Below are positions 8,502 through 64,000 of a stretch of DNA of 64,000 bases, piece by piece; position 1 is the stretch's first letter; each line of letters begins with the position of its first letter. Below the pieces are notes generated by a model. That model did not search any database, was not told where the DNA came from, and saw only the letters and a list, made by a program, of their open reading frames with translations. Source of the DNA: Candidatus Woesearchaeota archaeon (lineage in GTDB: Archaea > Nanobdellota > Nanobdellia > Woesearchaeales > JAFGPW01); assembly GCA_016935985.1 (NCBI GenBank), contig JAFGPW010000006.1:89047-153046 (forward strand). Direction: 5' to 3'. The position numbers and the translations under genes are program-made.

Positions 8502-8502
8502 C

Positions 8503-10787: not shown

Positions 10788-10812
10788 AAACCTTGACGCC
10801 TACCCTCTGGGC

Positions 10813-13310: not shown

Positions 13311-13376
13311 GGTGGCAGGAGGAAGGTGCGAACTATATTTAAGGCTTTCTATTTAGTGCCACTTTATAGTGACAAA

Positions 13377-13643: not shown

Positions 13644-13658
13644 GGGAATCCACCTCTT

Positions 13659-14663: not shown

Positions 14664-14757
14664 TTAATAAATAAAGATACTATTTAAATATTTCGCAATA
14701 TTAAGTAAAAATTAATGATAAAATATATATTTCTATAAGTCTCTATATAGTAGTAAT
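14664..14757. promoter_or_regulatory. AT-rich divergent promoter/operator region between lrp and the alaE-like gene
   Basis: ~95 nt of >80% AT (taaataaagatactatttaaatatt...ataaaatatatatttctataag) in a ~63% GC genome; multiple TATA-like elements on both strands. Confidence 0.5.
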
Positions 14758-15282: not shown

Positions 15283-15435
15283 TCACTTCAGGACATGGCC
15301 GCAGGTGTTGCAGACATGGGCCATCTTCTCCTCGTCGAAGGTGGTCGTGATGCCGTACTCTATCTTGGACTCGCACTTCGGGCAATGGGGCTCCAAGTGC
15401 TGCACAGAGTTGAAGAAATTGAACTCCCCGACCAT
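15283..15435 (-). CDS. Small zinc-ribbon protein (50 aa; CPKC...CNTC)
   Basis: Manual translation: MVGEFNFFNSVQHLEPHCPKCESKIEYGITTTFDEEKMAHVCNTCGHVLK*. Below the track's size cut-off; replaces the shadow ORFs 15254-15523(-) and 15295-15498(+). Confidence 0.45.
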   Translation of the reverse strand: MVGEFNFFNSVQHLEPHCPKCESKIEYGITTTFDEEKMAHVCNTCGHVLK

Positions 15436-15537
15436 GTCTCCGAACCCATAGACTATCCACTATATCGTTTAGTAAGGAAAAGGGGGATTCAAGTATAAAT
15501 ACTTTTCGGAAAAAAAACCGCACGAGCCACCCACGGT

Positions 15538-15550
15538 AGTTTTATATACG
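15538..15550 (+). promoter_or_regulatory. TATA box (gttttatatacg) upstream of the polB-like gene
   Basis: Located ~25 nt upstream of ATG 15572. Confidence 0.45.
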
Positions 15551-15571
15551 CAGCCAGCCACCCATCCCTCG

Positions 15572-18073
15572 ATGCCGCAGATAACCTTCTTCCTGATAGA
15601 CCTCTTCTACAAGGTGATAGCCGGAAGGCCGACCGTCGTCCTCTATGGCAAGACCCCCCGGCGGGCGCCCATCCTCGTCCATGACACGAGCTTCGAGCCG
15701 TACCTGCTCGCGCGGATCCATCCCTCGAGCTACAACGATTTCGTCGCCAGGGTGAAGAAGCTCGCCTGGACCGAAGAGGAGCGGCGCTATGCGGTGACGA
15801 GGACCGAGCTCGTGAAGCGGAAGGTCGACGGCTACGCGATGCAGCTCATCAAGGTGCACGGCAATGTCCCGAAGGCGGTGGGGCTCATCAAGAACGAGAT
15901 ACAGGGATGGGATATCGTGCAGTCGGTCTACGAGCACGACGTCTCGCTCAAGCGGAGCTATCTCATCGACAAGGGCATCTTCCCGCTCCGGCAGGTGACC
16001 GCGTCCGGCGACTTCATCAGGACCAGGAGCAAGGTGCAGGCATTCCAGGCGGTCAGGGTGGAGCCTGCCGGCGACGAATTCTACCCCGACCCGTCGATCC
16101 TCGCGATGGATGTCGGCACCATGCTGCAGGCAGAGCAGCAGGCGCTCGGGACCGAGAACCCGATCGTGCTCATCTCACTCTACAGCGAAGGGTACCGCAA
16201 GGTGATCACCTGGAAGCGGCACGAGAACGCGAAGGACTATGTCGAGTTCGTGGGGAGCGAGCACGACCTGATCATGCGGTTCAAGGACCTCATCGACCGA
16301 CTGCGGCCTGACATCCTCGTCGGCTTCCATTCCGACATGTTCGACCTGCCGTACCTCATCGCGCGCGCCAGGAAATACAGCATCCGGCTCGACATCGGCA
16401 TCGAATTCTCCCCACCCAGGGTCAGGAAGAACCCGCGGAGCGTGATGATCGCGGGCATCAACCACATCGATCTCGCGAACCTCGGCCGCGGCCTCTATCC
16501 CGAGCTGCTCGGCCTCGAGGAGTTCGACCTCGAGAGCGTCAGGCGCGTGCTCCTGAAGGCCGAGCCGCCGGAGACTGGCCAGAGAGTCCTCGTCAAGGAT
16601 GCGCCCGCCCCTGAGACCAACGCCGCTTCGCTCTGCGCGAAGGAGCACGAGCACGCGCGGCTGATATTCACCCTCAGCCACCGGCTCATGCCCTACCTCT
16701 TCGAGGTGGTGCGCCTCGTCGGCTTTACTCCCTACTCGGTCGCGAAGATGAACACGAGCATGATCGTCGAAGCGTACCTCATGCGCCAGACCCGCCAGTA
16801 CGACGAGGTCATCCTCAGGCGGCCGGGCAGGGGCCTGATCGAGCAGCGGTCAGGGACCGGCGTCCGGACGACCGTCCTCAAGGAGGCTGAGGAGGGGATC
16901 TCAAGCCAGGTCGCGCTCGTCTCCTACGCGAGCAGCTATCCCCATATCATCATCGAGCACAACATCTCCATGGGCGCGCTCAGGTGCCATTGCTGCAGGC
17001 GCGACGACCGGATGGTGCCTGACCTTGAGGAGGAGACCTGGTTCTGCCAGAACCGCCGCGGCTTCATCCCGCACGTGGTGCAGGCGCTCCTCTCGCGGCT
17101 CGAGACGATCGAGGCGATCATCGCGTCGGGCAGGAGCTCTGACCTGCTGCGGATACGGAAGGCGACGATCGAGCAGCTGCTCGCGAGCTCGCACATGGCA
17201 TTCTCCCATACCCATGCGAGATGGTATTCCTACCACTGCGCCCAGGCGGTGCACCGCTACGCGGCGTTCTACACGACGCATATCAGGAAGCGTCTCGAGG
17301 AGAAGGGCATCAGGGTTCTCTACGCGACCGAGTCGCAGCTGCACGTGTCGCTCGAGGGCAGCGGCCTCAACTGGCTCAGGCTCGCGCTCGAGGGGGCTGA
17401 GAGGAGCTACCCCCGCGTGCTCGTCTCGTCCCTTGCAGGACCGTACCTCAAGGCCCTCTACCGGACCGAGAAGGAGGGCGACCGGACGAGGACCGGCTAC
17501 GCGCTCATGGACGACGACGGCACGCTCACGCTCTCCGGCCTCGGGCCCCAGACGCGCACGCTTCCGCCGATCGCAAGGCTCGCCCTGGAGCAGGTCATCT
17601 CCATCCTCTTCAGGCAGGCTGACCGCGAGAAGGCGGCGACCTACATCCGCACGCTCATCAAGCAAGTGAGACAGAAGACCGTGCCTAAGGAGCTGATGAC
17701 GATCACGACGGCGCTCTCGAAGGACATCGACGAGTACGACACCGTCGCCCCGCACGTCGCGGTGGCGAAGCGGATGCGCAGCATCGGAATCCCGGTCGAG
17801 GCCGGGCACACGATCAGCTATATCGTCACCGCAGGCCCTGACAAGGTAGGCCAGCGCGCCCGACTGCCCAGCGAGGTCGCTCCCGGCGGCTATGACCCTG
17901 AGTATTATATCGAGAGCCACATCCTCCCCGCGATCGAGCCGATCCTCGGCATCGTCGGCATGACCCGCGAGGACCTCGAGCTCGACCGCGAGCAGGCGAC
18001 GCTCGGCTCGTTCGTCGAGGGTGAGGGGGAAGGGGATAGGGGAGAAAAGAGGGGGACGGGAAGGGATCCCTAG
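15572..18073 (+). CDS. polB: Family B DNA polymerase homologue with catalytic motifs disrupted (predicted inactivated PolB derivative)
   Basis: 833 aa with PolB architecture: Exo II FDLPYL retained; Exo I FDIET replaced by AMDVGT; motif A DxxSLYPSII replaced by LVSYASSYPHII (Asp lost); motif C YGDTDS replaced by YATESQ (both Asp lost). Confidence 0.8.
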   Translation: MPQITFFLIDLFYKVIAGRPTVVLYGKTPRRAPILVHDTSFEPYLLARIHPSSYNDFVARVKKLAWTEEERRYAVTRTELVKRKVDGYAMQLIKVHGNVPKAVGLIKNEIQGWDIVQSVYEHDVSLKRSYLIDKGIFPLRQVTASGDFIRTRSKVQAFQAVRVEPAGDEFYPDPSILAMDVGTMLQAEQQALGTENPIVLISLYSEGYRKVITWKRHENAKDYVEFVGSEHDLIMRFKDLIDRLRPDILVGFHSDMFDLPYLIARARKYSIRLDIGIEFSPPRVRKNPRSVMIAGINHIDLANLGRGLYPELLGLEEFDLESVRRVLLKAEPPETGQRVLVKDAPAPETNAASLCAKEHEHARLIFTLSHRLMPYLFEVVRLVGFTPYSVAKMNTSMIVEAYLMRQTRQYDEVILRRPGRGLIEQRSGTGVRTTVLKEAEEGISSQVALVSYASSYPHIIIEHNISMGALRCHCCRRDDRMVPDLEEETWFCQNRRGFIPHVVQALLSRLETIEAIIASGRSSDLLRIRKATIEQLLASSHMAFSHTHARWYSYHCAQAVHRYAAFYTTHIRKRLEEKGIRVLYATESQLHVSLEGSGLNWLRLALEGAERSYPRVLVSSLAGPYLKALYRTEKEGDRTRTGYALMDDDGTLTLSGLGPQTRTLPPIARLALEQVISILFRQADREKAATYIRTLIKQVRQKTVPKELMTITTALSKDIDEYDTVAPHVAVAKRMRSIGIPVEAGHTISYIVTAGPDKVGQRARLPSEVAPGGYDPEYYIESHILPAIEPILGIVGMTREDLELDREQATLGSFVEGEGEGDRGEKRGTGRDP

Positions 18074-18085
18074 GCTCTGCAGCGA

Positions 18086-18421
18086 TCACTTCCGCTGGCG
18101 CGCCAGGAACTCGTCGAGCCGACCCTTCAGCTGCTCTTTCCCCATGAAGCCAACGAGGCGCCCCGCTTCCTTCCCGTCCTTGAAAAGGACGAGCGTCGGG
18201 ATGCTCATCACATCGAAACGGGCAGCGGTGGCAGAGCTCGCATCCACGTCGAGCTTGCCGAACCTGAGCTCTGAAGGCCCGTATCCTTTCGAAACATCCT
18301 CGAATATGGGTCCCAGTATCTGGCAGGGACCGCACCAGCCTGCCCAGAAGTCGACGACAGAGGGGCTGCCGCCGGCGATGAAGCCATCGAAGTCCGCATC
18401 AGTGAGTCTTTCAGGTGCCAT
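18086..18421 (-). CDS. trxA: Thioredoxin
   Basis: WCGPC active site; 111 aa. Confidence 0.85.
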   Translation of the reverse strand: MAPERLTDADFDGFIAGGSPSVVDFWAGWCGPCQILGPIFEDVSKGYGPSELRFGKLDVDASSATAARFDVMSIPTLVLFKDGKEAGRLVGFMGKEQLKGRLDEFLARQRK

Positions 18422-18436
18422 TTCCTCATCATCCTC

Positions 18437-18898
18437 TCATCTCGTGCCATTGCCATCATCATCGTCCCCGTCGTCACTGTCCCCTGTTCCCGAGAACCGG
18501 GAGAGGAGCCGCCCGAGGAACCCCTTCTCCGAGCGGGTGCCCGTGCCGTCGGCGACGCCGAGCGAGACGTCGATCGCCTTCTCGAGCGCGGCACGGCGCG
18601 GCACGCCCTTGATGCCGATCCATTGGGGGTCGGCTGGGCCCTTGATGAGGATGGTAGGGGTCGACATGATCTCGAACCGCCGCGCCATCTGCAGGCCCAT
18701 GGGGGTCATGATATTGATCTCCTCGAACATGATGTCGTCCCTATCCGACGCGACGGTGCGGACGAGGTCCTTTGCTGGGGGGCAATGAGGACAGGTAGGG
18801 GAGAAGAACACCTTCACGTCCGCCTTCACCGTTTCGGTCGCAGAGGGGGTTGTCGCAGCCGTCATCATGTCACATCCGATTGTGAATATAGGATTCAC
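18437..18898 (-). CDS. Thioredoxin-fold / glutaredoxin-like small redox protein with acidic C-terminal tail
   Basis: CPHCP active-site motif in thioredoxin-fold context (VFFSPTCPHCPPAK...STPTILIKG); C-terminal DSDDGDDDDGNG tail. Confidence 0.6.
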   Translation of the reverse strand: MNPIFTIGCDMMTAATTPSATETVKADVKVFFSPTCPHCPPAKDLVRTVASDRDDIMFEEINIMTPMGLQMARRFEIMSTPTILIKGPADPQWIGIKGVPRRAALEKAIDVSLGVADGTGTRSEKGFLGRLLSRFSGTGDSDDGDDDDGNGTR

Positions 18899-18945
18899 AC
18901 CTATTATTTAAAGCCTGTGGAGTTGTGAAAAAAAGGAGAGGAAAA

Positions 18946-19332
18946 TCACCAGCCGTCGAGCTCCTTCGCGAACCGCTCGCTCCAGTTCCGGAAGTTCTCG
19001 CCGATCCTCTCCTTGAGGTCCGCCTTGTCGTGGATGTGGTAGACGAAGATGTAGCCGCCGCGGCCAAGGTTCTTCTGCCTACGCTCGATGATGCCCTTCT
19101 CGAGCAGCCGGGAGATCGACTTCTGCACGGTGCTGCGCTCCTTCCCCACCGCGTCCGCGAGCTCCTGGACAGGTCGGTTGTCGTGCGTCATCAGCGCCTC
19201 GAGCAGCAGGAAGTCGGTCTTGGTGATGCCGAACCCGCAGCGCACGATCTGGTCGAATGGTATCTTCGTGCAGGCGAAATTGAGGTCAGTCATGGTGGTC
19301 CTCCGGATGAAGGGGAAGCGGGTGCCAGGCAT
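18946..19332 (-). CDS. Winged-HTH transcription regulator (TrmB/MarR-like)
   Basis: LLLEALMTHDNRPVQELADAVGKERSTVQKSISRLLEKGIIERRQ is an HTH + wing pattern. True start may be the internal MTDLNF. Confidence 0.55.
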   Translation of the reverse strand: MPGTRFPFIRRTTMTDLNFACTKIPFDQIVRCGFGITKTDFLLLEALMTHDNRPVQELADAVGKERSTVQKSISRLLEKGIIERRQKNLGRGGYIFVYHIHDKADLKERIGENFRNWSERFAKELDGW

Positions 19333-22481: not shown

Positions 22482-23207
22482 ATGAGGAGACACCAAGTTT
22501 ACATGAGACCCATGGTCATGTCGATCCAACTGCCGGCTATTTTCGTCAATTTCAAGACCTATGAGAAAGCGACGGCAGACCGGGCAGAGGCTCTCGCCCG
22601 CATCTGCCAGCAGGTTTCGCACGAGACCGGCGTGCAGGTAGTCGTCGCAGTCCAGGATGCCGACATCTATCGTGTCTCGAGAAGGGTTACCATCCCTGTC
22701 TTCGCCGAGCACATCGATCCGGTGGGGTATGGGTCCTATACCGGCCAGATCATCCCTGAGGCGGTCAAGCTCAATGGCGCGCAAGGGACCATCCTCAACC
22801 ATTCTGAAGACCGGGTGCGGCTCGATGTGCTCGAGACAGCTATCAGGCGAGCGCATGAGGTCGGATTGATAACCCTCGCGTGCGCGAACACGCCCGAGGC
22901 CGCCGCTTCGATCGCCGAGCTCGGTCCTGACCTCATCGCCGTCGAGCCGCCTGAGCTCATCGGGTCAGGACGATCGGTCTCGAAGGCGAAGCCTGAGGTC
23001 ATCACTGACACGCTCGCGCGGGTGCGCAAGGTCGCGAACATCCCGGTCTTGTGCGGCGCCGGAATCGTCGACGCCGATGACGTCCGCCGGGCCATCGCTC
23101 TCGGCGCGCGCGGGATCCTCGTCGCGAGCGCGGTGACGAAGGCGAAGGATCCGGAGAAATCTCTTAGGGACCTCGCGAGAGGGTTCTCGAGAATCGAACA
23201 TGCCTAA
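22482..23207 (+). CDS. tpiA: Triosephosphate isomerase (archaeal type)
   Basis: AIFVNFKTYEKAT...ILNHSEDRV...AVEPPELIGSG matches archaeal TIM. First ATG after the TATA at ~22430; alternative starts at 22512/22518. Confidence 0.85.
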   Translation: MRRHQVYMRPMVMSIQLPAIFVNFKTYEKATADRAEALARICQQVSHETGVQVVVAVQDADIYRVSRRVTIPVFAEHIDPVGYGSYTGQIIPEAVKLNGAQGTILNHSEDRVRLDVLETAIRRAHEVGLITLACANTPEAAASIAELGPDLIAVEPPELIGSGRSVSKAKPEVITDTLARVRKVANIPVLCGAGIVDADDVRRAIALGARGILVASAVTKAKDPEKSLRDLARGFSRIEHA

Positions 23208-23824
23208 CCGATCTCTATATAGAGCTTATAGGCATTGTTGCCGTAGCTCTCCATGTTCGCGATGTCACACCCTGTCGGCTGCATACGCGGACAGGTCTTC
23301 ACAGTCACGGTGAATGCGAAGACATCGCTGCAGAATCCTTCATCATCGGCATCAATCTTGATGATGAATGAACTCTTCGCATTATTCTCGATGGTAGACG
23401 ATATCGAGACCTCATCCAGGGGGGTGACTATGGTCCGCTGATCAGTGATAGTCTGCATGACGAAATCTTGGGCATAGCAGCCCGCGACCTCCGACGGTTT
23501 GATGGTAATCCTGAAGTCACGCGTCTGACCTAAGACATTCATGACACCGATCGCGAAGGTGGACGCAGCGCCAGGACGGACGGTCTTGCGCGAGAGCGGG
23601 ATGGCGACACGCTCTCCCCTGTCCAGCAGACGTCTTATCTGCATCTCGGTCTGCGAGTCGACGTCCGCCTTGAGGCCTTCTGCTTTCTGGAAGAATGTCC
23701 GTGCGAACGAGATTCCCAGGCCGAAGACGACGACGGCGAGGACGAGGATGACCACAAAGCCGACCGAGAGTTCGATGGCGCGCTTGTTCAATCTCATGCG
23801 GGCGCGGGCGGGCTTCATTTTCAT
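23204..23824 (-). CDS. Signal-anchored / pilin-like secreted protein with 4 Cys (paralogue of 25561-26052)
   Basis: N-terminus RLNKRAIELSVGFVVILVLAVVVFGLGISFA: positive n-region, ~23-aa hydrophobic stretch, resembling class III (prepilin/TadE-like) signals or a signal anchor; mature part contains 4 Cys. Confidence 0.45.
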   Translation of the reverse strand: MKMKPARARMRLNKRAIELSVGFVVILVLAVVVFGLGISFARTFFQKAEGLKADVDSQTEMQIRRLLDRGERVAIPLSRKTVRPGAASTFAIGVMNVLGQTRDFRITIKPSEVAGCYAQDFVMQTITDQRTIVTPLDEVSISSTIENNAKSSFIIKIDADDEGFCSDVFAFTVTVKTCPRMQPTGCDIANMESYGNNAYKLYIEIG

Positions 23825-25257
23825 CTGCTCAGGTCGACGAAGACGAACTGCTCGTCATAGGTATTGCTGAACACGGCATCGTAGAGTGTGTAGGGCTCGC
23901 CTGCCCGATCGTTCAGGGCGACGTTGTAATGCAACCGGAGCGTCATCTTCCCGGTCTGCTCTGCAGTCTCGAGCGAGAAATCTATGGGGACATCGACGAC
24001 AATCGTCTCCCGCAAGGTGTCGAGAGTGTTTCCGTTAAAGAGGTCCTTCTTGCCGAGCAGCTCCTCACCGTCGACCAGCTCGATTCGGGTCACTTCGAGC
24101 GGACCGACGAAGTTGTCCCGTATCCCCGACAGCTGGATGGATATCGAGACGCTGTCCTCTCCGACGTGGATTGGCTTTTGCGCGTTCAACTCGGTAATGA
24201 GCTGGTACTCGTCGGCAGAATCTGTATAGAGGAGCTTAGTTTCTGATCGAGTATCGTCCCGAATCCGTTTGACGCAGCTGTTCGAAACGCAACGCCATTC
24301 GAGATGGTCCGAGTAGTCCCCCTCGCAGGTGCCGCAGTCGACCGCACAGGAGCACTTGTTCTCCGTGCTCTCGCACTCGAGGTTCCCGCAGATGCCGGGA
24401 ATCGGCGTGTGGATGCAGAGGAGCTTACCCTCGACGCATTCGTCTTCGGTGGCGTCATTACCGTCATCGCAGAAATCAGAGGCGCAGGCATAGGGTGTCG
24501 TCGGTTTCAGGAAGATGACGTTTGGAAGCTTTAGGTCCCGGCTTGCGGAAAGGGGGTCATACGCAGCCCGGTTGGGCTTGATCTTCCCGTAGTCAACAGA
24601 AACGCGGATCGTGAGATCTCCCGTCGTTTCGATAGAGGAGAAGGCGCGGTCCTTGAGAATAATGCTCTTGGAATATCCATCCCCACGACGCTCGAGCAAC
24701 AGATTCAGGGGGATAGTCGCGAGGGTCTCTTCGACACCATCGATGGTCGTCGTCAGTTCTATCGATGTGATCGTGATGTCGTTCGCATAATCCAGGTTCC
24801 TGTCTGATATATAGGTTATACTCGAAAGTTCAACGGTAAGGTTGAGATAGTTAGAGAACAGGTTGAAGGGGTTCGCATACCCTGCGGTGACCTTCAGCTC
24901 GAATCCCTCAAATTGCATCTTGGTCGCTACTTGTTCCTTATCGATGAGGTCCTTCACGATGTCCATGACACATTCGTCATTGACGCATAGCGTCTGGAAA
25001 TAGCGGCTCTCACTCACGCCTTCGCACGCTCCCACGTCCTCGGGGCAGCTGCACTTGGTCTCGTTCCTGTCGATGAGGCCGTTGCCGCAGCAGTTAAGGA
25101 GGGGCGAATAGGTGCAGATGCCCTTCACGCACTTGACGGTGTGGCAGGTCTTCTGGACGCAGTCGGCGTTCTGCTCGCATTCCGCCGGCCCGCAGCCGGC
25201 GAGGAGCAGGAGAACGGCCAGGGAGAATGCCAGGAGCGGGTATCTGATTGCCATCAC
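23821..25257 (-). CDS. Cys-rich secreted lipoprotein with internal duplication ([Cys-rich module + ~190-aa beta-rich domain] x2)
   Basis: Lipobox LLLAGC. Two homologous Cys-rich modules each ending KCSC...C..CEG (residues ~22-78 and ~266-322). 4-nt overlap with the downstream gene. Confidence 0.5.
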   Translation of the reverse strand: MMAIRYPLLAFSLAVLLLLAGCGPAECEQNADCVQKTCHTVKCVKGICTYSPLLNCCGNGLIDRNETKCSCPEDVGACEGVSESRYFQTLCVNDECVMDIVKDLIDKEQVATKMQFEGFELKVTAGYANPFNLFSNYLNLTVELSSITYISDRNLDYANDITITSIELTTTIDGVEETLATIPLNLLLERRGDGYSKSIILKDRAFSSIETTGDLTIRVSVDYGKIKPNRAAYDPLSASRDLKLPNVIFLKPTTPYACASDFCDDGNDATEDECVEGKLLCIHTPIPGICGNLECESTENKCSCAVDCGTCEGDYSDHLEWRCVSNSCVKRIRDDTRSETKLLYTDSADEYQLITELNAQKPIHVGEDSVSISIQLSGIRDNFVGPLEVTRIELVDGEELLGKKDLFNGNTLDTLRETIVVDVPIDFSLETAEQTGKMTLRLHYNVALNDRAGEPYTLYDAVFSNTYDEQFVFVDLSR

Positions 25258-25327
25258 AATCCCTTTTGAGGAAGAGAGGTATAAAAAGGTATCGGAATGA
25301 AAAGAGAAGAAAGGGAGGGGAAACCCC

Positions 25328-25549
25328 TCACTTGATGATCTCGTACTCCTTCACGATGAGCATCATGAAGAGTATGAGCACGATCGCGCCCGCGACCATG
25401 AACGAGAGCCCGCGGAGCACCTCGGTCGTCGTGCCGTTGACCATGACCCACATGCCGAAGGCCATGATGGCGAGCCCGAGCCAGAGGAACTTGTCGAGCA
25501 CCAGCTTCATGATCTCGAACTCTTCCGCCTGGGTTAAGCGTTTCTTCAT
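25328..25549 (-). CDS. Small membrane protein (2 TM)
   Basis: Coding-like part begins at MKKRLTQAEEFEIMKLV (ATG 25547-25549), 12 nt after the stop of the upstream gene; two hydrophobic helices. Confidence 0.35.
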   Translation of the reverse strand: MKKRLTQAEEFEIMKLVLDKFLWLGLAIMAFGMWVMVNGTTTEVLRGLSFMVAGAIVLILFMMLIVKEYEIIK

Positions 25550-25560
25550 GACGACCACCT

Positions 25561-26052
25561 TTAGGAAACCTGGACGACTATCTGCTTGGTCAGGCCTCCG
25601 CCGGCACCGATGGTGCACACCGACGATCCTGAACCGGTCATGTCAGCTGCCTCGACTACGACCTTGAAGCTTCTGAACGCTTCAGCAGGCACGGTCTGCG
25701 CAATGCCCGTGATAGGACTAGCAGGAGTTGCGGTAACGACTCCGCCCGTAGCGCATACGATCTGAGGAGTCATCGTTTGGTTTGATGTCGCGTCATTATA
25801 GATGTTCACTGGGATGACGCAGTCCTTGTTCTGGCTGCATTTAATCGTGTCAGAATAGACCACGACCGGCTCGTCCGCCGTCGCAGGGATGTTCGGCGGC
25901 TCGACCTCGAGCTTACCTTGCAGTTTCCCGAACATGCCTTTCGTGAACGCCAGGCCAAGACCGAGCATGGTGATGCCCAGCACCAGGACGACGATCGCGT
26001 TGACGGAAAGCTGGAGCGAACCGTCCTTGTTCCTTGCGAAAAACCTCATCAC
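25561..26052 (-). CDS. Signal-anchored / pilin-like secreted protein with 4 Cys (paralogue of 23204-23824)
   Basis: N-terminus RNKDGSLQLSVNAIVVLVLGITMLGLGLAFT shares the [RK]..LSV..VV.LVL...GLG..F pattern with 23204-23824. Confidence 0.45.
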   Translation of the reverse strand: MMRFFARNKDGSLQLSVNAIVVLVLGITMLGLGLAFTKGMFGKLQGKLEVEPPNIPATADEPVVVYSDTIKCSQNKDCVIPVNIYNDATSNQTMTPQIVCATGGVVTATPASPITGIAQTVPAEAFRSFKVVVEAADMTGSGSSVCTIGAGGGLTKQIVVQVS

Positions 26053-34445: not shown

Positions 34446-35177
34446 ATGGCGAAGCTATCCTTCAGGCGGCGCATGCGCGTCGGCGAGATGATCCGGCTCG
34501 CGTGGGAGCCGTTCATGGCCAACCTGAACACCATCCTGATCATAATCGCCGTGTTCTACCTGCCGCTGCACATGCTCGGGCTCGTCTTCAACCTCATGTT
34601 CGGCACGCCTGAGCCCGGCATCGTCCCCGGCTTCGCCGGCGCGTCCGCCGGCGTCGCGATCGCGCTCGCCTTCATCCGGCTCCTCGGCACCATCGCCATC
34701 ATGCTCGCGGTCCACAGCCACCTGAAGGGGAAGGACATCACCTGGACCGAGGCCCTCAACCGTGCGTTCCCGCGCTACTGGTCCGCCCTCGGGACAGGGG
34801 TCATGGCCGCGGTCTTCATCATCGGGCTGCTCCTGCTCCTGATCGTCCCGGGAATCATCTTCGCGGTCTTCTGGATGTTCATCCTTTACCTCGTGGTCCT
34901 GCGGGACAAGGTCGGCAGGGCAGCCCTGCGGGCGAGCAGGGCGCTCGTCCAGGGCAGGTGGTGGCGGACGCTCGGCTACGCGCTCGTCATCGGGCTCTTC
35001 AGCGTCGCCGTCATGGTCATCATCGCCATCCCGCTCTCGGTCATGTTCTTCCTCGCGCCGCAACCGATCCTGACCTTCGTGATCGACGTCCTCGCCGAGG
35101 CAGTCGCCGCGTACACCGGCATCGTCTCCCTCATCCTCTTCCTCAACTGGGAGGCGACGAATCGGGCGCCGGCATAG
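34446..35177 (+). CDS. Hypothetical integral membrane protein (6 TM)
   Basis: 243 aa, hydrophobic throughout. Confidence 0.5.
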   Translation: MAKLSFRRRMRVGEMIRLAWEPFMANLNTILIIIAVFYLPLHMLGLVFNLMFGTPEPGIVPGFAGASAGVAIALAFIRLLGTIAIMLAVHSHLKGKDITWTEALNRAFPRYWSALGTGVMAAVFIIGLLLLLIVPGIIFAVFWMFILYLVVLRDKVGRAALRASRALVQGRWWRTLGYALVIGLFSVAVMVIIAIPLSVMFFLAPQPILTFVIDVLAEAVAAYTGIVSLILFLNWEATNRAPA

Positions 35178-41472: not shown

Positions 41473-43467
41473 ATGAATAAGCACGGTTTCATCGGCCTCA
41501 TCTGCACCGTTCTCGCCGTCCTGATGGCGTCGACCGCCTTCGCGGCGCTCGAGATATCGGGCGAGACGACCTCGCTCGCCGGTACGAACGGCGACACGCC
41601 CACGGGCTCCTTCGACGTCACCAACACCGGCGGAAGCGCGGTGAGCGACGTGCATTCGACCGACACCCACCCCTACGGCATCGGCTACGTGCCGGACGGC
41701 TTCGGGCTCGCCGCTGGCGCGACCGAGACGGTCGACTTCACGGTCACCATCCCCGCCGACGCGAAGGTCGGTTCCTACCAGGGCATCGTCACCGCCGAGG
41801 ACAACCTCAGCCAGACCGACACCTTCATCCTGACGGTCGAGGTCCAGGACAACGGCCTCGGGCTCGTCAAGTCGAGCGACCCCACGCCCCTGACGACCGA
41901 CTCAGGTCTCACCATCGAGGGCAGCTTCAGTGTCGAGAACGAGAGGAACGACGACATCACCGCGACGCTCTCCGGCGTGCTGACGAAGGGGAGCGACGAG
42001 CTCACCATCACGGGAAAGCAGGTCACCCTGCCGTATCTCACCACGACCACGGTCACGTTCCAGATCGCCGTGCCTGACAGCGCGCCTGCCGGCACCTATG
42101 TGGGCGACATCAGCCTCGCCTACGGCTCAGACACGCTCATCGCCGCGGCGACTGTCACCGTCAACCCGACCGCGATCATCAGCGTCGCGGACGTCTCGCA
42201 GAACATCCTTCCCGGCGACAGCGAGAGCGCGACCATCACGATCCATAACACCGGCAACGTCGATGTCGCGGGGCTCGGGATCAACTACACCGCGAGCGAC
42301 TTCAGGGACAACGACGGTGACGAGCTCGACCTCTCGTTCTCCCCGATGACGGGGATCGACATCGCGGCGGGCGGGAGCGCGACGGTCACCGTCACCGCCG
42401 ACGCGCCGACGAGCCTCGACCGCGGCACCTACTCGGGCACGGTCACGGTCACGGACAGCGCGGTCCAGGATACTTTCACCCTCTCCTTCCAGACCCTCTC
42501 GGTCCTCAGGATAGGCGACGTGACGTTGACGAGCGAAGGGAAGGACGTCGAGGTCAGGCCCGGCGAGGAGTTCGAGGTCGAGGTCGAGGTCGAGAACGTC
42601 GCCGACGAGATCGACGTCGAGAACATCGTCGTCACGGTCTGGTTCGAGAACGGCGGCAGGCTCGAGGACGACGAGGGCGACGACCTCGAGGACGAGAGCG
42701 ACGAGTTCGACCTCGACGAGGGCGACGAGGAGACCGTCGTCTTCTCCTTCATCATGCCCTACGGCGTCGAGGACGGCGACGACTACACCATCCATGTCGA
42801 GGCGGAGGGCAGGAACGCCGACGACCGCACCCAGCGCATCTTCGACGAGGACGATAGCGAGACGATCGAGGTCGTGAAGGAGAAGCATGAGATCGTCTAT
42901 GACCATGTCGCGCTGCGCTCGTCCACGCTCGCCTGCGAACGGACGACCTCGGTCGAGGTGACGGTCCGCAACACCGGCCAGAAGGACGAGGATGTCGAGC
43001 TCATGATCACGAACGACGACTTCGACATCGAGATCATCGACTTCTTCACGCTCGACGCGGACTATGACGACGACGAGAACGAGTATGACGGCAGCTACGC
43101 GATCAGCGTTCCGTCAGGGACGAAGAAGGGCGAGTACGAACTCGAGGTCCGCGCCTACTACGACGACGGAGACAAGTACCTCTCCGCCGACCTCTCGCTC
43201 ACGGTGGGCGACTGCAGGCAGACCACACCTACCGAGGATCAGGAGGAAGGGGAAGAGCAGGAGGAGGTAGAGGAGCAGGAGGAGGGGATGATTGTCATCA
43301 CCCCGCCGTCGAAGCCCGGCGAGGGCGAGGTCATCGTCAAGCCGCCCATCGAGGTGACGGAAGAGGCCGCTGCGACGAACGGCTACCTATGGCTCCTCAT
43401 CATCGCCGATGCGGTGCTGCTCGCATCGATCGTCGCGGTCATCTGGCTGCTCCTGAGGAAGAGGTAA
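41473..43467 (+). CDS. Large cell-surface protein with multiple CARDB-like domains, acidic repeat region and C-terminal TM anchor
   Basis: Signal MNKHGFIGLICTVLAVLMASTAFA; repeated xTNTGxxxV motifs; DE-rich stretches; C-terminal YLWLLIIADAVLLASIVAVIWLLLRKR. Confidence 0.6.
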   Translation: MNKHGFIGLICTVLAVLMASTAFAALEISGETTSLAGTNGDTPTGSFDVTNTGGSAVSDVHSTDTHPYGIGYVPDGFGLAAGATETVDFTVTIPADAKVGSYQGIVTAEDNLSQTDTFILTVEVQDNGLGLVKSSDPTPLTTDSGLTIEGSFSVENERNDDITATLSGVLTKGSDELTITGKQVTLPYLTTTTVTFQIAVPDSAPAGTYVGDISLAYGSDTLIAAATVTVNPTAIISVADVSQNILPGDSESATITIHNTGNVDVAGLGINYTASDFRDNDGDELDLSFSPMTGIDIAAGGSATVTVTADAPTSLDRGTYSGTVTVTDSAVQDTFTLSFQTLSVLRIGDVTLTSEGKDVEVRPGEEFEVEVEVENVADEIDVENIVVTVWFENGGRLEDDEGDDLEDESDEFDLDEGDEETVVFSFIMPYGVEDGDDYTIHVEAEGRNADDRTQRIFDEDDSETIEVVKEKHEIVYDHVALRSSTLACERTTSVEVTVRNTGQKDEDVELMITNDDFDIEIIDFFTLDADYDDDENEYDGSYAISVPSGTKKGEYELEVRAYYDDGDKYLSADLSLTVGDCRQTTPTEDQEEGEEQEEVEEQEEGMIVITPPSKPGEGEVIVKPPIEVTEEAAATNGYLWLLIIADAVLLASIVAVIWLLLRKR

Positions 43468-46829: not shown

Positions 46830-48449
46830 ATGGCAGAGGCTGAGACGACGGCTCCTGCGCCCAAGGCGCAGGCCGATGCGGCGGCAGAGACCGCGCGCAG
46901 GAAAGGCACCTTCTACATCGACCTCCGGCCACGCCTGATGCGCCTCCCCTCCTTCCGGGAGAAGGAGCGAATCAACATCCGCTACCCGCTCATCTACCCC
47001 TACTCCTTCGCCCACATCTTCTGGGACGAGAAGAACAAGGAGCTCGTCTACTTCGTCGAGGAGCCGATCCTCAACGACACCGAGCGCGAGATCCTGAAGC
47101 TCATCCAGCTCGGGCTCGAGGAGATGATCAACGTCAGCTTCATCAAGGCGAAGGAGCTCAACATCATCCTCGACTACCTGGAGCGCAACGTCCAGTCGAT
47201 CCTCATCGAGCTCGGCACCAAGGTGAGCAAGGAGACCTACCAGAAGATGATGTATTACATCTACCGCGATGCGGTGGGCCTGAACCAGATCGAGCCGCTG
47301 CTCAACGACTACTACATCGAGGACATAGAGTGCAACGGGAAAGGGGTGCCCATCTACATCGTCCACCGCAGCTATGAGAACATGCGGACGAACATCGTGT
47401 ATCGCGACAACCAGGACCTGATCAACTTCATCGAGAAGCTCGCCCAGAAGGCGGGGCGGTACGTCTCCTACGCGAAGCCGCTGCTCGACGGCACTCTCCC
47501 CGACGGATCCCGCGTGAACGCCACCTACACGGACGACGTCACCACGCGGGGGCCCACCTTCACCATCCGCAAGTTCACGAAGGAGCCCTGGACGCCGATC
47601 CACCTCATCCAGAAGGGGACGGCGACCGCCGAGGTCTTCGCCTTCCTCTGGCTCGCGATCGAGCACAAGTTCAACATCATGTGCGTCGGCGAGACGGCGT
47701 CGGGCAAGACCACGTTCCTGAACGCGATCATCCACTTCATCCCGCCGGAGGCGAGGATTTGCTCGATCGAGGACACGCGCGAGATCAACATCGCGCACGA
47801 GAACTGGCTTCCCTCGGTCACGCGCTCGGGCTTCGGCATCCCGAACATCCTCGGCAAGATGTACGGCGAGATCACGCTCTTCGACCTGCTCAAGGAATCC
47901 TTCAGGCAGAACCCCGACTATGTCATCGTCGGCGAGATCAGGGGCGAGGAGGCGTACGTCCTCTTCCAAGGCATGGCATCAGGGCATCCGTCGTCGTCCA
48001 CGTTCCACGCGGCGAGCGTCGAGACGCTCGTGCGGCGCCTGCAGACCCCGCCGATCAGCCTCTCGCCCTCGCTCATCGAGTCGCTCGACATCGTGTGCGT
48101 GCTCACGCACATCAAGGACCAGGAGAAGTCGGTGCGCAGGCTGAAGGAGGTCGACGAGGTGATAGCGGTCAAGGACGCTGCGGGGGCCGTCGACTACAAC
48201 AGGGTCTTCCTCTGGGACCCGGCGCGCGATACCGTCCAGCTCAGGGGGCAGTCCTACATCCTGCAGCGGATGATCAAGCAGAGCGGGAAGACGATCCAGG
48301 ATTTCGGGTCGGAGCTCAAGCGGCGGACGCTGCTCCTATCGAAGCTCGCCGAGATGAACATCACCAACTACAAGGAAGTCAACCAGGTCCTCAACGCCTA
48401 CTACAAGAACCCGCAGGCGGTGCTGGACAATTACGGGATACAGGCCTGA
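46830..48449 (+). CDS. Type IV filament assembly ATPase (FlaI/ArlI-EpdL-TadA-like, VirB11 superfamily)
   Basis: Walker A CVGETASGKTTFLNAI, Walker B/Asp box DYVIVGEIRGEEA, His box; 539 aa. Confidence 0.85.
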   Translation: MAEAETTAPAPKAQADAAAETARRKGTFYIDLRPRLMRLPSFREKERINIRYPLIYPYSFAHIFWDEKNKELVYFVEEPILNDTEREILKLIQLGLEEMINVSFIKAKELNIILDYLERNVQSILIELGTKVSKETYQKMMYYIYRDAVGLNQIEPLLNDYYIEDIECNGKGVPIYIVHRSYENMRTNIVYRDNQDLINFIEKLAQKAGRYVSYAKPLLDGTLPDGSRVNATYTDDVTTRGPTFTIRKFTKEPWTPIHLIQKGTATAEVFAFLWLAIEHKFNIMCVGETASGKTTFLNAIIHFIPPEARICSIEDTREINIAHENWLPSVTRSGFGIPNILGKMYGEITLFDLLKESFRQNPDYVIVGEIRGEEAYVLFQGMASGHPSSSTFHAASVETLVRRLQTPPISLSPSLIESLDIVCVLTHIKDQEKSVRRLKEVDEVIAVKDAAGAVDYNRVFLWDPARDTVQLRGQSYILQRMIKQSGKTIQDFGSELKRRTLLLSKLAEMNITNYKEVNQVLNAYYKNPQAVLDNYGIQA

Positions 48450-48480
48450 CCGGCGGGAGGGCCAGGGGGGACGGGCACGC

Positions 48481-48681
48481 ATGAGGCTCGCTGAACTGGA
48501 AGAGAACATCGAACGCATGATAGCGACCATGGAATTCTACCAGGAGCTCCTCGCCACGAAGACGCTCGACGAGGACGGCTTCGAGGCGCTCCAGGTGAAG
48601 GCCCGCTACGCGAAGGAGCAGCTGCTGCGCCTCACCCTCACCAACACGAGGCTCATCAAGCGGATGGAGAAGGGGCTCTGA
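48481..48681 (+). CDS. Small coiled-coil protein (66 aa)
   Basis: Short ORF between the ATPase and platform genes. Confidence 0.3.
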   Translation: MRLAELEENIERMIATMEFYQELLATKTLDEDGFEALQVKARYAKEQLLRLTLTNTRLIKRMEKGL

Positions 48682-48684
48682 GGG

Positions 48685-50802
48685 ATGGACGAGAAGAGGT
48701 TCAAGGACATGAAGGGACGGGCCCTGCGGATGCTCGAGATCATCAGGGAAATCCGCGTCCTCGAGGCGTACAAGGTCAGGATCAGCGAGACCGCGCGGAC
48801 GATCGAGGAGAATTACCAGAAGGGCGTCTACGGCTACTTCAGGTACCAGAACCTGCTCCACGAGCACCTCAAGGACAAGGGCCTCAAGGAGTGGGTCGAT
48901 TACTACAACGCGAGCATCATGGAGCTCCTTGCCGAGACAGACTTCCTCAACGCCCAGGTCTTCTACGACGTCTACCATGACGAGACGCGGCTCTCGCTCA
49001 AGGCGCTCAGGGTCCATCGGGTAACGAGGAAGGAGCCTGAGCCCCATCTCCCGGGCTATCCGGTCGATCCCGGGAAGGTGAAGGAGGAGAGGGCGCGGCT
49101 CTTCAGGCCGGTCCTCAGGAAGAAGATAACGACCGGGCTCACGCACCCTGAGACGGCGAAGCCAGCTCCCGCACCGCCGGTACCCGCGCCGGCTCCGGCC
49201 GAGGCGGCCCCCCTGCCCCCGCACCGCCCGCGCCTCCCGTTCTGGCATCGCTTCAGGCTGTCGCTCAGGGACCTGCTCCATCTGAAGACTAAAGCCGGTC
49301 CGCGGGCTAAGCCCGGGACGAGGAAGGCTCCCGCACCGCCAGCGTCGGCTCCGCCGCCCGCGCCAGAGGCATTCGCGCAGGGGCCGGAGAAGGCGCAGGC
49401 CCGCATGCCGCCGAGCGGGCCGGAAAAGGAGCCGGAGTTCATGGACCTCGACATCGGCGACGCCGGGAAGGTCACGACCGAGGCGCCGGCCGAGAAGGAG
49501 GGAAAGCCCATCTTCATGATACGGCCGCGCGGCGCCGCCGACGTGCTCCCCTGGCTCGAGGAGGGGGCGCGGGCGCGCACCCCGACGCTCGGGGAGCGCA
49601 TCACCGCCGCGTTCAGGGGGAAGCGGCGGAAGAGGACGCTCTTCGAGGACCTGCACGAGGAGGAGCCTGAGGCCGGCGGCGAGCCCATCGGCCTGCAGTT
49701 CAACATCATCAGGATGGTGAAGCGGATGCTGTCCGAGCGCCAGCAGTACATGGGCACGAAGACCGAGATATCGCCGACGCTCCTCTCGCTGCGCCGCTAC
49801 CGCGAGGGCACCATCACCGAGGTTGGCAAGGAGGACGTGAACGCGACGCTGCTCGCGAAGGAGGCGAGGCGCATCAAGAGAATCATAGGGAAGGAGTCGC
49901 GGTTCTCCATCTACAACCCTTCCTCAATCGGCTCGATCGCGAACGTGCTCGTCCGCAGGATCAGCCTCTACTTCATCGACCAGTATCCCGAGTTCTTCAA
50001 GGCCTTCTACAACAACCTGCGGCTCGCGAACATCAGGATCCTGTCCAACACCTATGTCAACATGATGACGCTCGCGGTGCTCTCCTCGCTCGGCGTCTTC
50101 ACGACGTTCTTCGCCGTGTTCTTCTGGGTGCTCGGCTACCCGCCCCTGCAGATCCTCGCGCGCACGCTCCTCGCCTCGAGCCTGTTCGGCATCCTCTCCT
50201 TCGTCCTGTTCTACACCTACCCGATCAGCCGCATCAGGCAGCGCCGGCGCTCGATCAGGACGAACCTGCCGTTCGCGATCAACCACATGTCGGCGGTCGT
50301 GTCCTCGGGGGTCCCCCCTGACGCGATGTTCCGGCTGATCGTCGAGTCGAGCGAGTACGGCGAGATCGTCGTCGAGATCGAGAAGATCGTCGAGTACGTC
50401 GACCTCTTCGGCTACGACCTCCTCACCGCGGTGAACAGCGTCGCGCAGATGACGCCGGCCGACGAGCTGCGCGAGTTCTTCGCCGGCTTCGTCTCGACGA
50501 TCGAGTCCGGCGGCGACCTCAAGGACTACCTCCAGCAGAAGGCCGAGGAGGCGATGCTCTCGTACAAGCTCGAGCGCCAGAAGTACCTCGAGTCGATCTC
50601 GACCTATTCCGACATCTACACCGGCATCCTCATCGCCGCGCCGCTCTTCTTCGTGGTCGCGCTCTCGCTCGTCAGCATGCTCGGCGGGCAGATCGGCGGC
50701 ATGGAGATCAACACCGTCATCGCTATCGGGACCTATGCGGTCATCCCGCTGCTGAACCTCGGCTTCCTCGTGTTCCTGCAGCTGAACCAGCCGGAGGTGT
50801 GA
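48685..50802 (+). CDS. Type IV filament platform protein (T2SSF domain; TadB/EpdJ-like) with ~420-aa cytoplasmic N-terminal extension containing Pro/Ala-rich linkers
   Basis: C-terminal ~280 aa carry TM helices and a T2SSF-like cytoplasmic domain (LPFAINHMSAVVSSGVPPDAMF...DLFGYDLLTAVNSVAQ). Confidence 0.7.
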   Translation: MDEKRFKDMKGRALRMLEIIREIRVLEAYKVRISETARTIEENYQKGVYGYFRYQNLLHEHLKDKGLKEWVDYYNASIMELLAETDFLNAQVFYDVYHDETRLSLKALRVHRVTRKEPEPHLPGYPVDPGKVKEERARLFRPVLRKKITTGLTHPETAKPAPAPPVPAPAPAEAAPLPPHRPRLPFWHRFRLSLRDLLHLKTKAGPRAKPGTRKAPAPPASAPPPAPEAFAQGPEKAQARMPPSGPEKEPEFMDLDIGDAGKVTTEAPAEKEGKPIFMIRPRGAADVLPWLEEGARARTPTLGERITAAFRGKRRKRTLFEDLHEEEPEAGGEPIGLQFNIIRMVKRMLSERQQYMGTKTEISPTLLSLRRYREGTITEVGKEDVNATLLAKEARRIKRIIGKESRFSIYNPSSIGSIANVLVRRISLYFIDQYPEFFKAFYNNLRLANIRILSNTYVNMMTLAVLSSLGVFTTFFAVFFWVLGYPPLQILARTLLASSLFGILSFVLFYTYPISRIRQRRRSIRTNLPFAINHMSAVVSSGVPPDAMFRLIVESSEYGEIVVEIEKIVEYVDLFGYDLLTAVNSVAQMTPADELREFFAGFVSTIESGGDLKDYLQQKAEEAMLSYKLERQKYLESISTYSDIYTGILIAAPLFFVVALSLVSMLGGQIGGMEINTVIAIGTYAVIPLLNLGFLVFLQLNQPEV

Positions 50803-51722
50803 GGGTGGCGTTCAGGCTGCAGTTCGACCTCAGGCACTCCCTCACGATGGGGATGGGGCTGATCCTCATCGGGCTCGACGCCGTGTTCTTCTTCGGGACG
50901 CCCCTCTTCATCCCGCTGATCGTCGTCGCGGTGACACTCGGGTGGAGCCAGTACTGGATCGACTTCTTCAGGGAGCGGGCGGCGCAGGGCCAGTACGAGG
51001 CGCAGTTCGGCGAGTTCGTGCGGAACCTCGTCGCGGGCATCAAGTCGGGCATGCCGGTGTCGCGCGCGATCATCCACGTCGCGAAGAACGACTACGGAGC
51101 GTTGTCCCCCCATGTCAAGAAGCTCGCGAACCAGATCGAGTGGACGATCCCCGTGCACAAGGCGCTCGTCAACTTCGGCGCCGCGACGCGGAACCCGATC
51201 ATCGCGCGCGCGATATCGACGGTGATCGAGGCGGAGCAGAGCGGCGGCAACATCGAGGACGTGCTCGAGTCGATCACCATCTCGCTGATGGAGATCAAGA
51301 AGATCAAGCAGTCGCGCAAGGCCTCGATCCAGGGCCAGGTCATCCAGTCCTACATCATCTTCTTCGTCTTCCTCGGCGTGATGATCATCATCCAGAACCT
51401 GCTCATCCCCTACATCTCGAGCATGGAGGCGAGCGGGTTCGGCATCGGGGAGGGGGGAATCAACCTGGCGCAGACGCGCGCGGTCCAGATCGAGGAGTCG
51501 ATGGCGATCGACTACCGCTCGCTCCCGCGCTTCTTCGAGACCTTCGGGCTGTGGCTCGTCTCCCTCCACGGCATCTTCCTCTCGCTCACGCTCGTCCAGG
51601 GGCTGTTCGCCGGGCTCGTCATCGGCAAGCTCTCGGAAGGGGACATCCAGGCAGGCATCAAGCACAGCCTGATCCTGATGACCCTCGCCTTCTTCGTGAT
51701 CAGCCTGGCGCAGGGGTTCTGA
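50799..51722 (+). CDS. Second type IV filament platform protein (single T2SSF domain; TadC/EpdK-like)
   Basis: GTGA start overlapping the upstream stop; 307 aa, N- and C-terminal TM helices flanking a T2SSF-like cytoplasmic domain. Confidence 0.65.
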   Translation: MRVAFRLQFDLRHSLTMGMGLILIGLDAVFFFGTPLFIPLIVVAVTLGWSQYWIDFFRERAAQGQYEAQFGEFVRNLVAGIKSGMPVSRAIIHVAKNDYGALSPHVKKLANQIEWTIPVHKALVNFGAATRNPIIARAISTVIEAEQSGGNIEDVLESITISLMEIKKIKQSRKASIQGQVIQSYIIFFVFLGVMIIIQNLLIPYISSMEASGFGIGEGGINLAQTRAVQIEESMAIDYRSLPRFFETFGLWLVSLHGIFLSLTLVQGLFAGLVIGKLSEGDIQAGIKHSLILMTLAFFVISLAQGF

Positions 51723-63589: not shown

Positions 63590-63979
63590 TTAGGTGATGT
63601 CCTTCGCCCTTATCGAGAGGAAGTCCGCCTGCGACTCGAGCGTGATCTCGAGGTCGTAGTCGAAGTTCGCCGAGTCCACGCTGTAGATGACGGACACGTA
63701 GTCGGCGTTCGTCTGGTTGGTCGCCGGGAACATCGCGCTCGTCACGACGCCCTCGCTGTTCGCAGGGTCAGACGGGTCGCCGATCGCGAAGTCGAAGGTG
63801 CCGTTCACCGACGCGTTCGTCTCCTTGAGGAAGATCCATTCCACGATGTCGGAGAGGTTGATGGACTGGTTGCCGAACCTGTTCAGCCGCACCCGTATGC
63901 GGGAGTTCTCGAGGATGTAGTGGGAGCCGTGCTCGTAGGAGTTGACATCCACGTTGGAGGAGATGACGAGGTTGCCCAT
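63590..63979 (-). CDS. Hypothetical protein (possibly 5'-truncated by window edge)
   Basis: Coding-like ORF; Asn/Ser/Thr-rich, beta-strand-like. Confidence 0.3.
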   Translation of the reverse strand: MGNLVISSNVDVNSYEHGSHYILENSRIRVRLNRFGNQSINLSDIVEWIFLKETNASVNGTFDFAIGDPSDPANSEGVVTSAMFPATNQTNADYVSVIYSVDSANFDYDLEITLESQADFLSIRAKDIT

Positions 63980-64000
63980 GCGTATCTTGGTCCGCGGCTC

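Follow-up and report, generated by a model that had tools for sequence, protein, structure and literature searches.

A putative non-archaellar type IV pilus assembly cassette of Woesearchaeota with a split platform, a tethered N-terminal module and a small helical-hairpin protein

The four-gene cassette and its distribution

Type IV pili are the main candidate organelles for the attachment of DPANN archaea to their hosts, and to our knowledge the pilus machinery of DPANN archaea has hardly been examined so far. Here we describe a four-gene cassette for the assembly of a type IV filament in a 64,000-nucleotide stretch of a Candidatus Woesearchaeota genome (GenBank assembly GCA_016935985.1, contig JAFGPW010000006.1, positions 89,047 to 153,046), which is called the window below. 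All four open reading frames (ORFs) were found on the + strand at the coordinates given in an earlier note on this DNA. The genes of the cassette and the parts of its long gene are listed here, with positions counted from the first nucleotide of the window.

46830-48449, + strand: assembly ATPase of the GspE/FlaI/VirB11 family, 539 aa (Pfam T2SSE, E = 2e-31)
48481-48681, + strand: small cytoplasmic helical-hairpin protein, 66 aa, a conserved cassette accessory without Pfam or NCBIfam match
48685-50802, + strand: long platform protein, N-half, 705 aa (one T2SSF domain, residues 532-658, E = 3e-17)
48685-48984, + strand: N-module, residues 1-100 of the 705-aa protein, a three-helix unit
48985-49833, + strand: disordered hypervariable tether, residues ~101-383 (from the predicted local distance difference test, pLDDT, and length variation)
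49834-50043, + strand: conserved juxtamembrane cytoplasmic segment, residues ~384-453 (from the alignment and a hidden Markov model, HMM, of the region before the first transmembrane, TM, helix)
50044-50802, + strand: membrane core of the N-half, TM1-TM2, T2SSF bundle, TM3-TM4, residues 454-705 (from T2SSF and Foldseek)
50799-51722, + strand: platform C-half, 307 aa if read from GTG 50799 (one T2SSF domain, residues 73-198, E = 4e-18)
50805-51722, + strand: platform C-half, 305 aa if read from GTG 50805, whose start has Shine-Dalgarno spacing; polytopic membrane protein

The Walker A, Walker B, Asp box and His box motifs of the ATPase were read in its translation (Walker A GETASGKT, then SIEDTRE, DYVIVGEIRG and SGHPSSSTFHA). 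The two platform genes had been described as coupled through a GTGA overlap. The tight coupling stands, but the GTG of this overlap, at 50799, is probably unused as a start. A Shine-Dalgarno sequence, GGAGGTG, occupies 50793-50799, 5 nt ahead of GTG 50805, and for this reason the start at 50805 is favoured; the public gene call also starts there. The C-half gene thus probably begins at GTG 50805, 2 nt past the stop of the long gene.

A homology search with the whole 705-aa protein returned only two relatives, the low complexity of the linker having probably dominated the word index, and both relatives showed the same four-gene order as the window. With the conserved C-terminal part of the protein as query, the search gave 476 proteins with E <= 1e-20. 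When species-representative genomes were scanned with a three-sequence alignment as query, 58 loci came up, essentially all of them in metagenome-assembled genomes of Woesearchaeota or Nanoarchaeota; the label 'uncultured Methanosarcinales' on some third-party assemblies among these loci is probably wrong. The four-gene cassette is present in at least 60 species-level genomes of Woesearchaeota and Nanoarchaeota. In all 58 loci of the scan the ATPase gene is followed by a short gap with a small ORF in it, then by the gene of a long T2SSF protein (545-1019 aa) and that of a short one (~300 aa). Sequence identity between the window ATPase and those of 30 related loci is 52-67%. With 62% GC, and a GC content at third codon positions (GC3) above 0.9, the window is the highest of 61 family loci, the others having 30-53% GC, and its genome is that of an unusually GC-rich Woesearchaeote.

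The split platform and the type of filament

The 705-aa protein aligned to the N-terminal half of the ArlJ/FlaJ models of NCBIfam (positions 6-248 of 555), and the 307-aa protein to their C-terminal half (positions 328-442 of 555 in one model and 190-379 of 465 in another). The two genes therefore correspond to one FlaJ-like platform that is split collinearly. In Foldseek the T2SSF bundle of the N-half matched the cytoplasmic domains of EpsF, OutF and PilC (TM-score ~0.75). That the platform consists of two separate proteins with a single T2SSF domain each, as previously proposed, is borne out by Pfam and by every locus examined, since the halves are encoded separately in all of them. About ten genomes have 0.45-3.7 kb of unrelated DNA between the N-half and the C-half genes, which indicates that the halves work as independent polypeptides; where ORFs can be read in this DNA, they encode, among others, PIN toxins, a membrane methyltransferase-like protein and, on the opposite strand, an AlaX-like protein. 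An apparently fused platform in locus L053 was an artefact, in which two ORFs are bridged by X residues that stand for the masked N's of an assembly gap. A sister subfamily without the N-module, whose N-half has 340-347 aa, is likewise split (for example 341 + 279 aa), so the fission is older than the extension. The split of the platform is ancient and universal in this clade. A second and much more divergent cassette lies at 7867-11286 of locus L021, on the contig that also carries the main cassette. Its ATPase scored 252 bits against the window ATPase, and its two single-T2SSF genes are apparently C-half-like and then N-half-like, as judged from weak BLAST matches.

The T2SSE ATPase, the two T2SSF proteins and the EpsF/PilC-like fold of the platform support the view that the cassette is a type IV filament assembly module. 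One candidate for its kind is the motor core of a divergent archaellum, with the arl accessory genes elsewhere in the genome. The best NCBIfam match of the window ATPase is the FlaI equivalog NF058587, which covers the full length at 417.3 bits and yet stays below its cut-off of 550 (BasE gave 227 bits, and TadA, TIGR03819, 143 bits against a cut-off of 373). Both platform halves match only the ArlJ, UpsF and BasF models, and the automated annotation of some homologues is 'FlaJ'. The ArlI-ArlJ (FlaI-FlaJ) pair of the archaellum provides the best-scoring curated models for all three core proteins, and has in common with the cassette the presumed general plan of a hexameric ATPase under a polytopic platform. 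However, all curated cut-offs were missed widely, the best ArlJ model giving 99.7 and 43.7 bits with the two halves against cut-offs of 400-570, and ArlJ is a single two-domain protein. The genes arlB, arlF, arlG and arlH, which the earlier note had taken as marks of an archaellum, were looked for nearby and not found. The search for ArlH/KaiC-like proteins, ArlF/G, ArlB and ArlC/D/E/X was likewise negative among the called genes that flank the cassette here and in ~65 related loci. The filament genes conserved in the neighbourhood have no archaellin domains, and giant Ig-like or adhesin-like neighbours better fit an adhesion pilus. We agree with the earlier note that this is not an archaellum, and regard a divergent archaellum as very improbable.

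The earlier note had called the module Epd/Tad-like. On this account the locus would fall within the Epd-like clade from which bacterial Tad pili arose, and one ancestral fission would have produced its two platform genes as well as EpdJ/EpdK and TadB/TadC. Part of the definition of the clade of Epd-like and Tad systems is a pair of single-T2SSF genes, formed when an internally duplicated gene split in two (PMC6668835). Two such genes in tandem are what the Epd system of Methanococcus maripaludis (EpdJ/EpdK/EpdL) and the Tad system (TadA/TadB/TadC) have in common with the cassette, and the split could be homologous at a deeper level. A split platform is not diagnostic of Epd, because many clade-2 systems have two tadC-like genes, and in other respects the Epd and Tad systems differ from the cassette. 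In Tad, TadC is the N-half and TadB the C-half, with the order tadZ-tadA-tadB-tadC, and in Epd two platform genes (J, K) are followed by the ATPase (L) and a FlaH-like gene (PMC6668835); the order of ATPase, N-half and C-half found here is unlike both. The Epd-like and Tad systems have a FlaH/TadZ-type second ATPase and short pilins (PMC6668835), whereas no such second ATPase was found in any cassette examined and the pilins have 146-257 aa. The features of the ATPase itself speak against an affinity to Tad: its PDB relatives are GspE of A. fulgidus (2OAP) at 403 bits, FlaI of S. acidocaldarius at 284 bits and the Tad ATPase CpaF at only 148 bits, the TadA model TIGR03819 remains far below its cut-off, and the PilB3_C domain is present in the family. 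The label could be upheld only for the shared trait of a split platform, and we consider an Epd/Tad-like system to be improbable. Most simply, the fission seen here was either independent of the Epd/Tad event or common with clade 2. Either case bears on the scenario in which Tad came from Epd-like archaea, as this scenario partly rests on the split character.

The cassette appears closest in its features to the adhesion pili of euryarchaeal clade 2 (Haloferax volcanii PilB3-PilC3/PilB4-type; 'Halo pilus' group, Denise et al. 2019). PilB3_C was found by Pfam on 25 of 31 family ATPases (best E = 6e-10), and the ATPase appears to belong to the group nearest to the archaellum ATPases. In clade 2 the ATPase/TadC modules are separable from the pilin genes and often use pilins encoded elsewhere, and many euryarchaeal loci have two tadC-like genes (PMC4858521). 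Several pilin-like genes, including one of ~250 aa, and large S-layer-like or adhesin-like neighbours are further likenesses, and clade 2 has nanoarchaeal members (PMC4858521). The cassette differs from clade 2 in that its N-half carries a module of ~100 aa on a disordered tether, in that a small hairpin gene is inserted, and in its DPANN host. We consider it likely that the cassette encodes the core that assembles an archaeal type IV pilus other than an archaellum at the cytoplasmic membrane, the pilus being probably adhesive and of the clade 2/PilB3-like kind, with the module and its partner as additions. Some points count against this assignment. The placement in clade 2 draws on score ratios and one domain match, PilB3_C on the window ATPase itself reaches 15.6 bits against a gathering score of 27, and the search for Peptidase_A24 was negative both in the window and among the annotated genes around the related loci fetched, so that prepilin processing is assumed.

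The family ATPases vary in two further ways. The N-terminal tail before the conserved F-Y-I-D-L-R-P core is hypervariable, disordered and rich in Ala, Pro, Gly and Lys. It has 26 aa in the window (46830-46910) and up to ~225 aa in relatives (L002, L005, L007, L008 and L043). Inteins occur in the pilus ATPases of several relatives, and the window ATPase has none. An insertion of ~445 aa follows FQGMA (residue 383 of the window ATPase) in L010, L011, L045, L054 and L057, and the ATPase of L047 has a 515-aa insertion after LPDG (residue 226 of the window ATPase). Both types of insertion end in HN, then Ser, and the precomputed Pfam annotation for L065-L068 gives Intein_splicing and LAGLIDADG_3.

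The N-terminal extension, its module and the small protein

The N-terminal extension of the long platform protein was resolved from alignments and an AlphaFold2 model built on 56 sequences. Its length had been put at ~420 aa. A long extension is indeed present, but TM1 begins at ~454 and the part added relative to module-less homologues amounts to ~365-385 aa. The extension had also been called unusual; it is instead a hallmark of the family, found in dozens of genomes and not peculiar to the window genome. The N-module has helices at residues 3-45, 51-62 and 67-97, with a pLDDT of 87-98 in the full model, and reached a pLDDT of 94 and a predicted template-modelling score (pTM) of 0.79 when modelled alone. 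It matched no family of Pfam or NCBIfam in a domain search, and a literature search on DPANN pilus machinery with such extensions gave nothing specific.

The GC3 in the ORF's own frame is 0.80-0.98 from the first to the last codon of the long gene, and conservation of the N-terminal ~100 aa extends over dozens of genomes, which indicates that the extension is truly coding and lies in one ORF with the platform core. An annotation artefact would mean that the true start is near residue 380, with the part before it being a separate gene or untranslated, or that the 66-aa and long ORFs are one gene through TGA readthrough. A module-less subfamily of ~340 aa does exist, and in the window the two ORFs stand in one frame with only TGA GGG between them (48679-48687). 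Against a late start, the single ORF has a strong frame-specific GC3 throughout, and it remains unbroken across the family, where linkers vary between 24 and 596 aa and genomic GC between 30% and 62%. Moreover, the N-module stands at the extreme N-terminus of full-length platforms in 71 of 142 newly listed representative matches, and likewise in 65 of the 123 proteins scanned from homology searches. Readthrough or fusion was ruled out, since only 14 of the 39 loci have both ORFs in one frame, as expected by chance, and the spacing varies from -35 to +189 nt. An artefact of either kind is hardly credible.

The tether has a pLDDT mostly below 50 (about residues 111-336), with only short isolated helices such as that at residues 186-199 (LPFWHRFRLSLRDLLHL). 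Its length in the family varies between 24 and 596 aa (median 213). The richness in Pro and Ala reported for the window tether is present and is a GC-driven composition, as the Pro+Ala+Gly+Arg content of tethers tracks the GC content of the locus (r = 0.85). Because the window is the highest-GC member, the PAPAPPVPAPAPAEAAP stretch is compositional drift in an unconstrained spacer, and the Pro/Ala/Arg-rich disordered regions can be attributed to the high GC content of the window genome. Amphipathic 14-mers with aromatic and basic residues are enriched in the linkers of the family (56 observed, against 15.6 +/- 3.8 in shuffled sequences with a maximum of 27); the window linker fails the strict filter for them.

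The juxtamembrane segment has invariant or near-invariant columns at E393, Y410, G416, N420, P435, F438 and R446. The HMM of this region matched every full-length member, including those without the N-module. In the model the pLDDT is ~60-75 at residues 384-410, 94-97 from residue 411 and ~83-98 over the membrane core (residues 454-705). The loop between TM1 and TM2 has four residues, and the basic stretch RIRQRRRSIR follows TM2 ahead of the cytoplasmic bundle. From this predicted topology the N-terminus and the whole extension must be cytoplasmic, in line with the earlier note.

The N-module is not confined to platform proteins. When 1.8 billion representative proteins were searched exhaustively with its profile, 417 clusters matched with E <= 1e-3, 138 of them with E <= 1e-10, and the match almost always covered residues ~1-100. 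Among the 142 newly listed proteins, 71 have a T2SSF core and most of the others are fragments. Seven listed proteins have one to four tandem N-modules, directly followed by a single TM helix and then by a large C-terminal region.

P0185: surface protein with four copies, TM helix at residue 305, 1135 aa
P0238 and P0240: giant proteins with two copies each, 3196 aa and 3014 aa
P0227, P0249, P0252 and P0260: other single-pass proteins with the N-module

Two of these seven are LamG giants, as Laminin_G_3 (ConA-like lectin) domains occur three times in P0238 and five times in P0240. Where these clusters have named members, they stem from Nanoarchaeota MAGs, as in the P0185 cluster, apart from a Patescibacteria label on one partial member in the cluster of P0227. 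To judge from these architectures, the N-module is a portable, previously undescribed domain with a predicted cytoplasmic location. The locus of P0185 has no pilus genes; 1.4 kb upstream of P0185 it has the gene of a presenilin-type signal-peptide peptidase (PF06550; L072 5323-6225, L073 1456-2358). A 98-aa gene upstream of P0185 was considered as a small-hairpin gene and proved not to belong to that family.

The small ORF between the ATPase and the platform genes was found in all 39 complete loci. It has 58-96 aa (191 aa in L024), and the sequences align with a conserved two-helix pattern. Its presence follows that of the N-module, with the small gene in 41 of 41 loci that have the module, including those of two module-bearing members with short linkers (425 and 443 aa), and in none of the three that lack it. 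In these three independent module-less loci the HMM of the small protein found nothing anywhere, and the platform gene begins 1-2 nt past the ATPase stop. The module-less and short-linker loci are apparently orthologous, because they share their downstream synteny (Archease, RtcB, OapB). We also compared the divergence of the small protein and the N-module in a mirror-tree test controlled for the divergence of the platform core and the ATPase. The partial Mantel r was 0.29, a value reached by 2 of 2000 permutations, and the juxtamembrane segment taken as a control gave r = 0.085 (411 of 2000 permutations). This residual covariation between small protein and module is suggestive only.

By analogy with known machines, the two platform halves would pair as a heterodimer that mimics the pseudo-twofold platform made by internal duplication, and the ATPase hexamer would dock on the cytoplasmic T2SSF bundles beneath it. 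Prepilins would be processed by an A24 peptidase that we assume to be encoded elsewhere, and ATP-driven movements would lift them from the membrane into the growing filament. The filament is probably adhesive, judging from the neighbouring Ig-like giants. The small protein might bind the tethered module to form a helical bundle, and the two together might serve as a flexible adaptor in the cytoplasm, through which the ATPase is recruited or regulated or the machine is clustered. We put forward a direct interaction of the small protein with the module tentatively, at somewhat less than even chances. Several observations speak against it or weaken its support. Mirror-tree signals are prone to rate artefacts, and the co-occurrence may reflect a single gain of module and small gene, which is effectively one event. 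The small protein was also tried as a paralogue of the N-module, and hhalign found nothing (probability 0.3%). As regards a link to adhesins, P0185 is not encoded near pilus genes.

As the main alternative, the module, tether and small protein could form an auto-inhibitory or regulatory switch without an adaptor or clustering role, in which the module occupies the docking site of the ATPase until the small protein or a signal releases it. A cytoplasmic site, a flexible tether and the strict co-occurrence with the small gene are equally compatible with such a switch, and small coiled-coil 'regulatory' subunits have been proposed in another archaeal type IV pilus subclade (arCOG07564; PMC4858521). 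A switch of this kind leaves unexplained why the module, often in tandem, is found on LamG giants that have no ATPase partner, and why the tether varies 25-fold in length. We think it unlikely. Because the same module heads giant LamG surface proteins, a shared cytoplasmic docking handle is conceivable. The module and the small hairpin would then couple pilus machines to LamG lectin-type adhesins, the tether serving as a leash of variable reach, and the result might be a dedicated attachment site, possibly for host contact, in ultrasmall and probably episymbiotic archaea. This coupling is a speculative proposal to which we give a modest chance, roughly one that a reader should bet against. If it is true, a pilus-adhesin link would offer a testable molecular model of how genome-reduced symbionts organise their attachment apparatus; if it is false, what remains is an ordinary archaeal pilus core whose extension is decorative.

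Cytoplasmic coiled-coil accessories are known from type IV filament and flagellar systems (arCOG07564 of the halobacterial subclade 4F, H. pylori HP0958, ArlX/FlaX), and no sequence relationship to them was detected. The cassette differs from them in that one partner is covalently tethered to the platform and in that the module also occurs on surface proteins. The core of ATPase and split platform is already known in kind, and Epd, Tad, clade 2 and Thermoproteales systems offer documented cases of the split. What appears to be new is the triad of module, tether and small protein across a DPANN order, together with the module on giant LamG proteins; neither was found in Pfam, NCBIfam or the literature searched. 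The analysis defines a conserved four-gene core with two lineage-specific parts that are always paired in it.

Pilin genes and neighbouring genes

In the relatives, the ATPase gene is directly preceded on its own strand by a conserved pilin-like cluster. It consists of a pilin-like gene of ~160 aa, a two-TM gene of ~100 aa, a pilin of ~185 aa, a gene of ~140 aa and a pilin-like gene of ~235 aa, and giant secreted proteins often precede it. The ~185-aa pilin of the relatives has the near-invariant N-terminus KAVSPLIATVLLIAFAVALGAVVM. Two groups of genes in the window were compared with this cluster.

63590-64000, - strand: 3' part of the last gene of the pilin cluster (257 aa in full), homologous to the pilin-like gene directly upstream of the relatives' ATPase (E = 7e-13 to 1e-65)
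23204-26052, - strand: genome-specific cluster with a 163-aa and a 206-aa protein that are class-III-signal-peptide-like and resemble each other at the N-terminus, a two-TM protein (96 aa) and a Cys-rich, lipoprotein-like protein (478 aa) whose N-terminus is lipobox-like

The full cluster is seen on L064, a public contig that overlaps the window, just past the window edge on the minus strand (window-equivalent 63590-67004). Its proteins have 257 aa (63590-64363), 146, 112 (two-TM), 220, 161 and 185 aa, and two Ig/fn3/filamin-like proteins, of 790 aa and >1361 aa, come next. The 112-aa two-TM protein is 62% identical to that of the relatives. The 220-aa protein passes TIGR02537 (archaellin/type IV pilin N-terminal domain) with 26.8 bits against a cut-off of 20, and the 257-aa pilin-like protein has only a faint match to DUF7289. 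All of the filament proteins lack an archaellin domain, and they carry class III signal peptides. In the window genome the cognate pilin cluster has moved ~12 kb downstream of the cassette and is inverted. The statement that no pilin genes adjoin the cassette thus holds for its immediate surroundings, but not for the window, which contains the 3' part of a cognate pilin gene.

The genes at 23.2-26.1 kb had been put forward as the pilin candidates. Their products have prepilin-like N-termini, yet they have no homologues in any of ~65 related loci and were ruled out as cognate pilins. A family search with this cluster gave only a faint match to the UpsA N-terminal family. These proteins may be extra substrates, their association with the cassette being unproven. 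The earlier note had also seen no prepilin peptidase adjoining the cassette, in accordance with the negative Peptidase_A24 result for the 64-kb window, and a 6-TM ORF at 34446-35177 that was considered for this role is not a Peptidase_A24 protein.

The neighbours of the cassette in the window are archaeal housekeeping genes (for example TYW3, NFACT-R and CRS1_YhbY), and tRNA and Rfam scans of the window were empty. A 664-aa protein encoded 3.4 kb upstream of the cassette (41473-43467, + strand) combines a signal sequence at its N-terminus with a TM anchor at its C-terminus and several Ig-like, fn3 and CARDB-type domains, and may be an S-layer or surface protein. In L002, the closest low-GC relative, NosD/beta-helix giants of 3078, 1076 and 986 aa flank the pilus locus (1-4777 and 12856-19177). 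The giant neighbours therefore differ between lineages, with NosD/beta-helix proteins in L002 and Ig/fn3-like proteins in the window genome.

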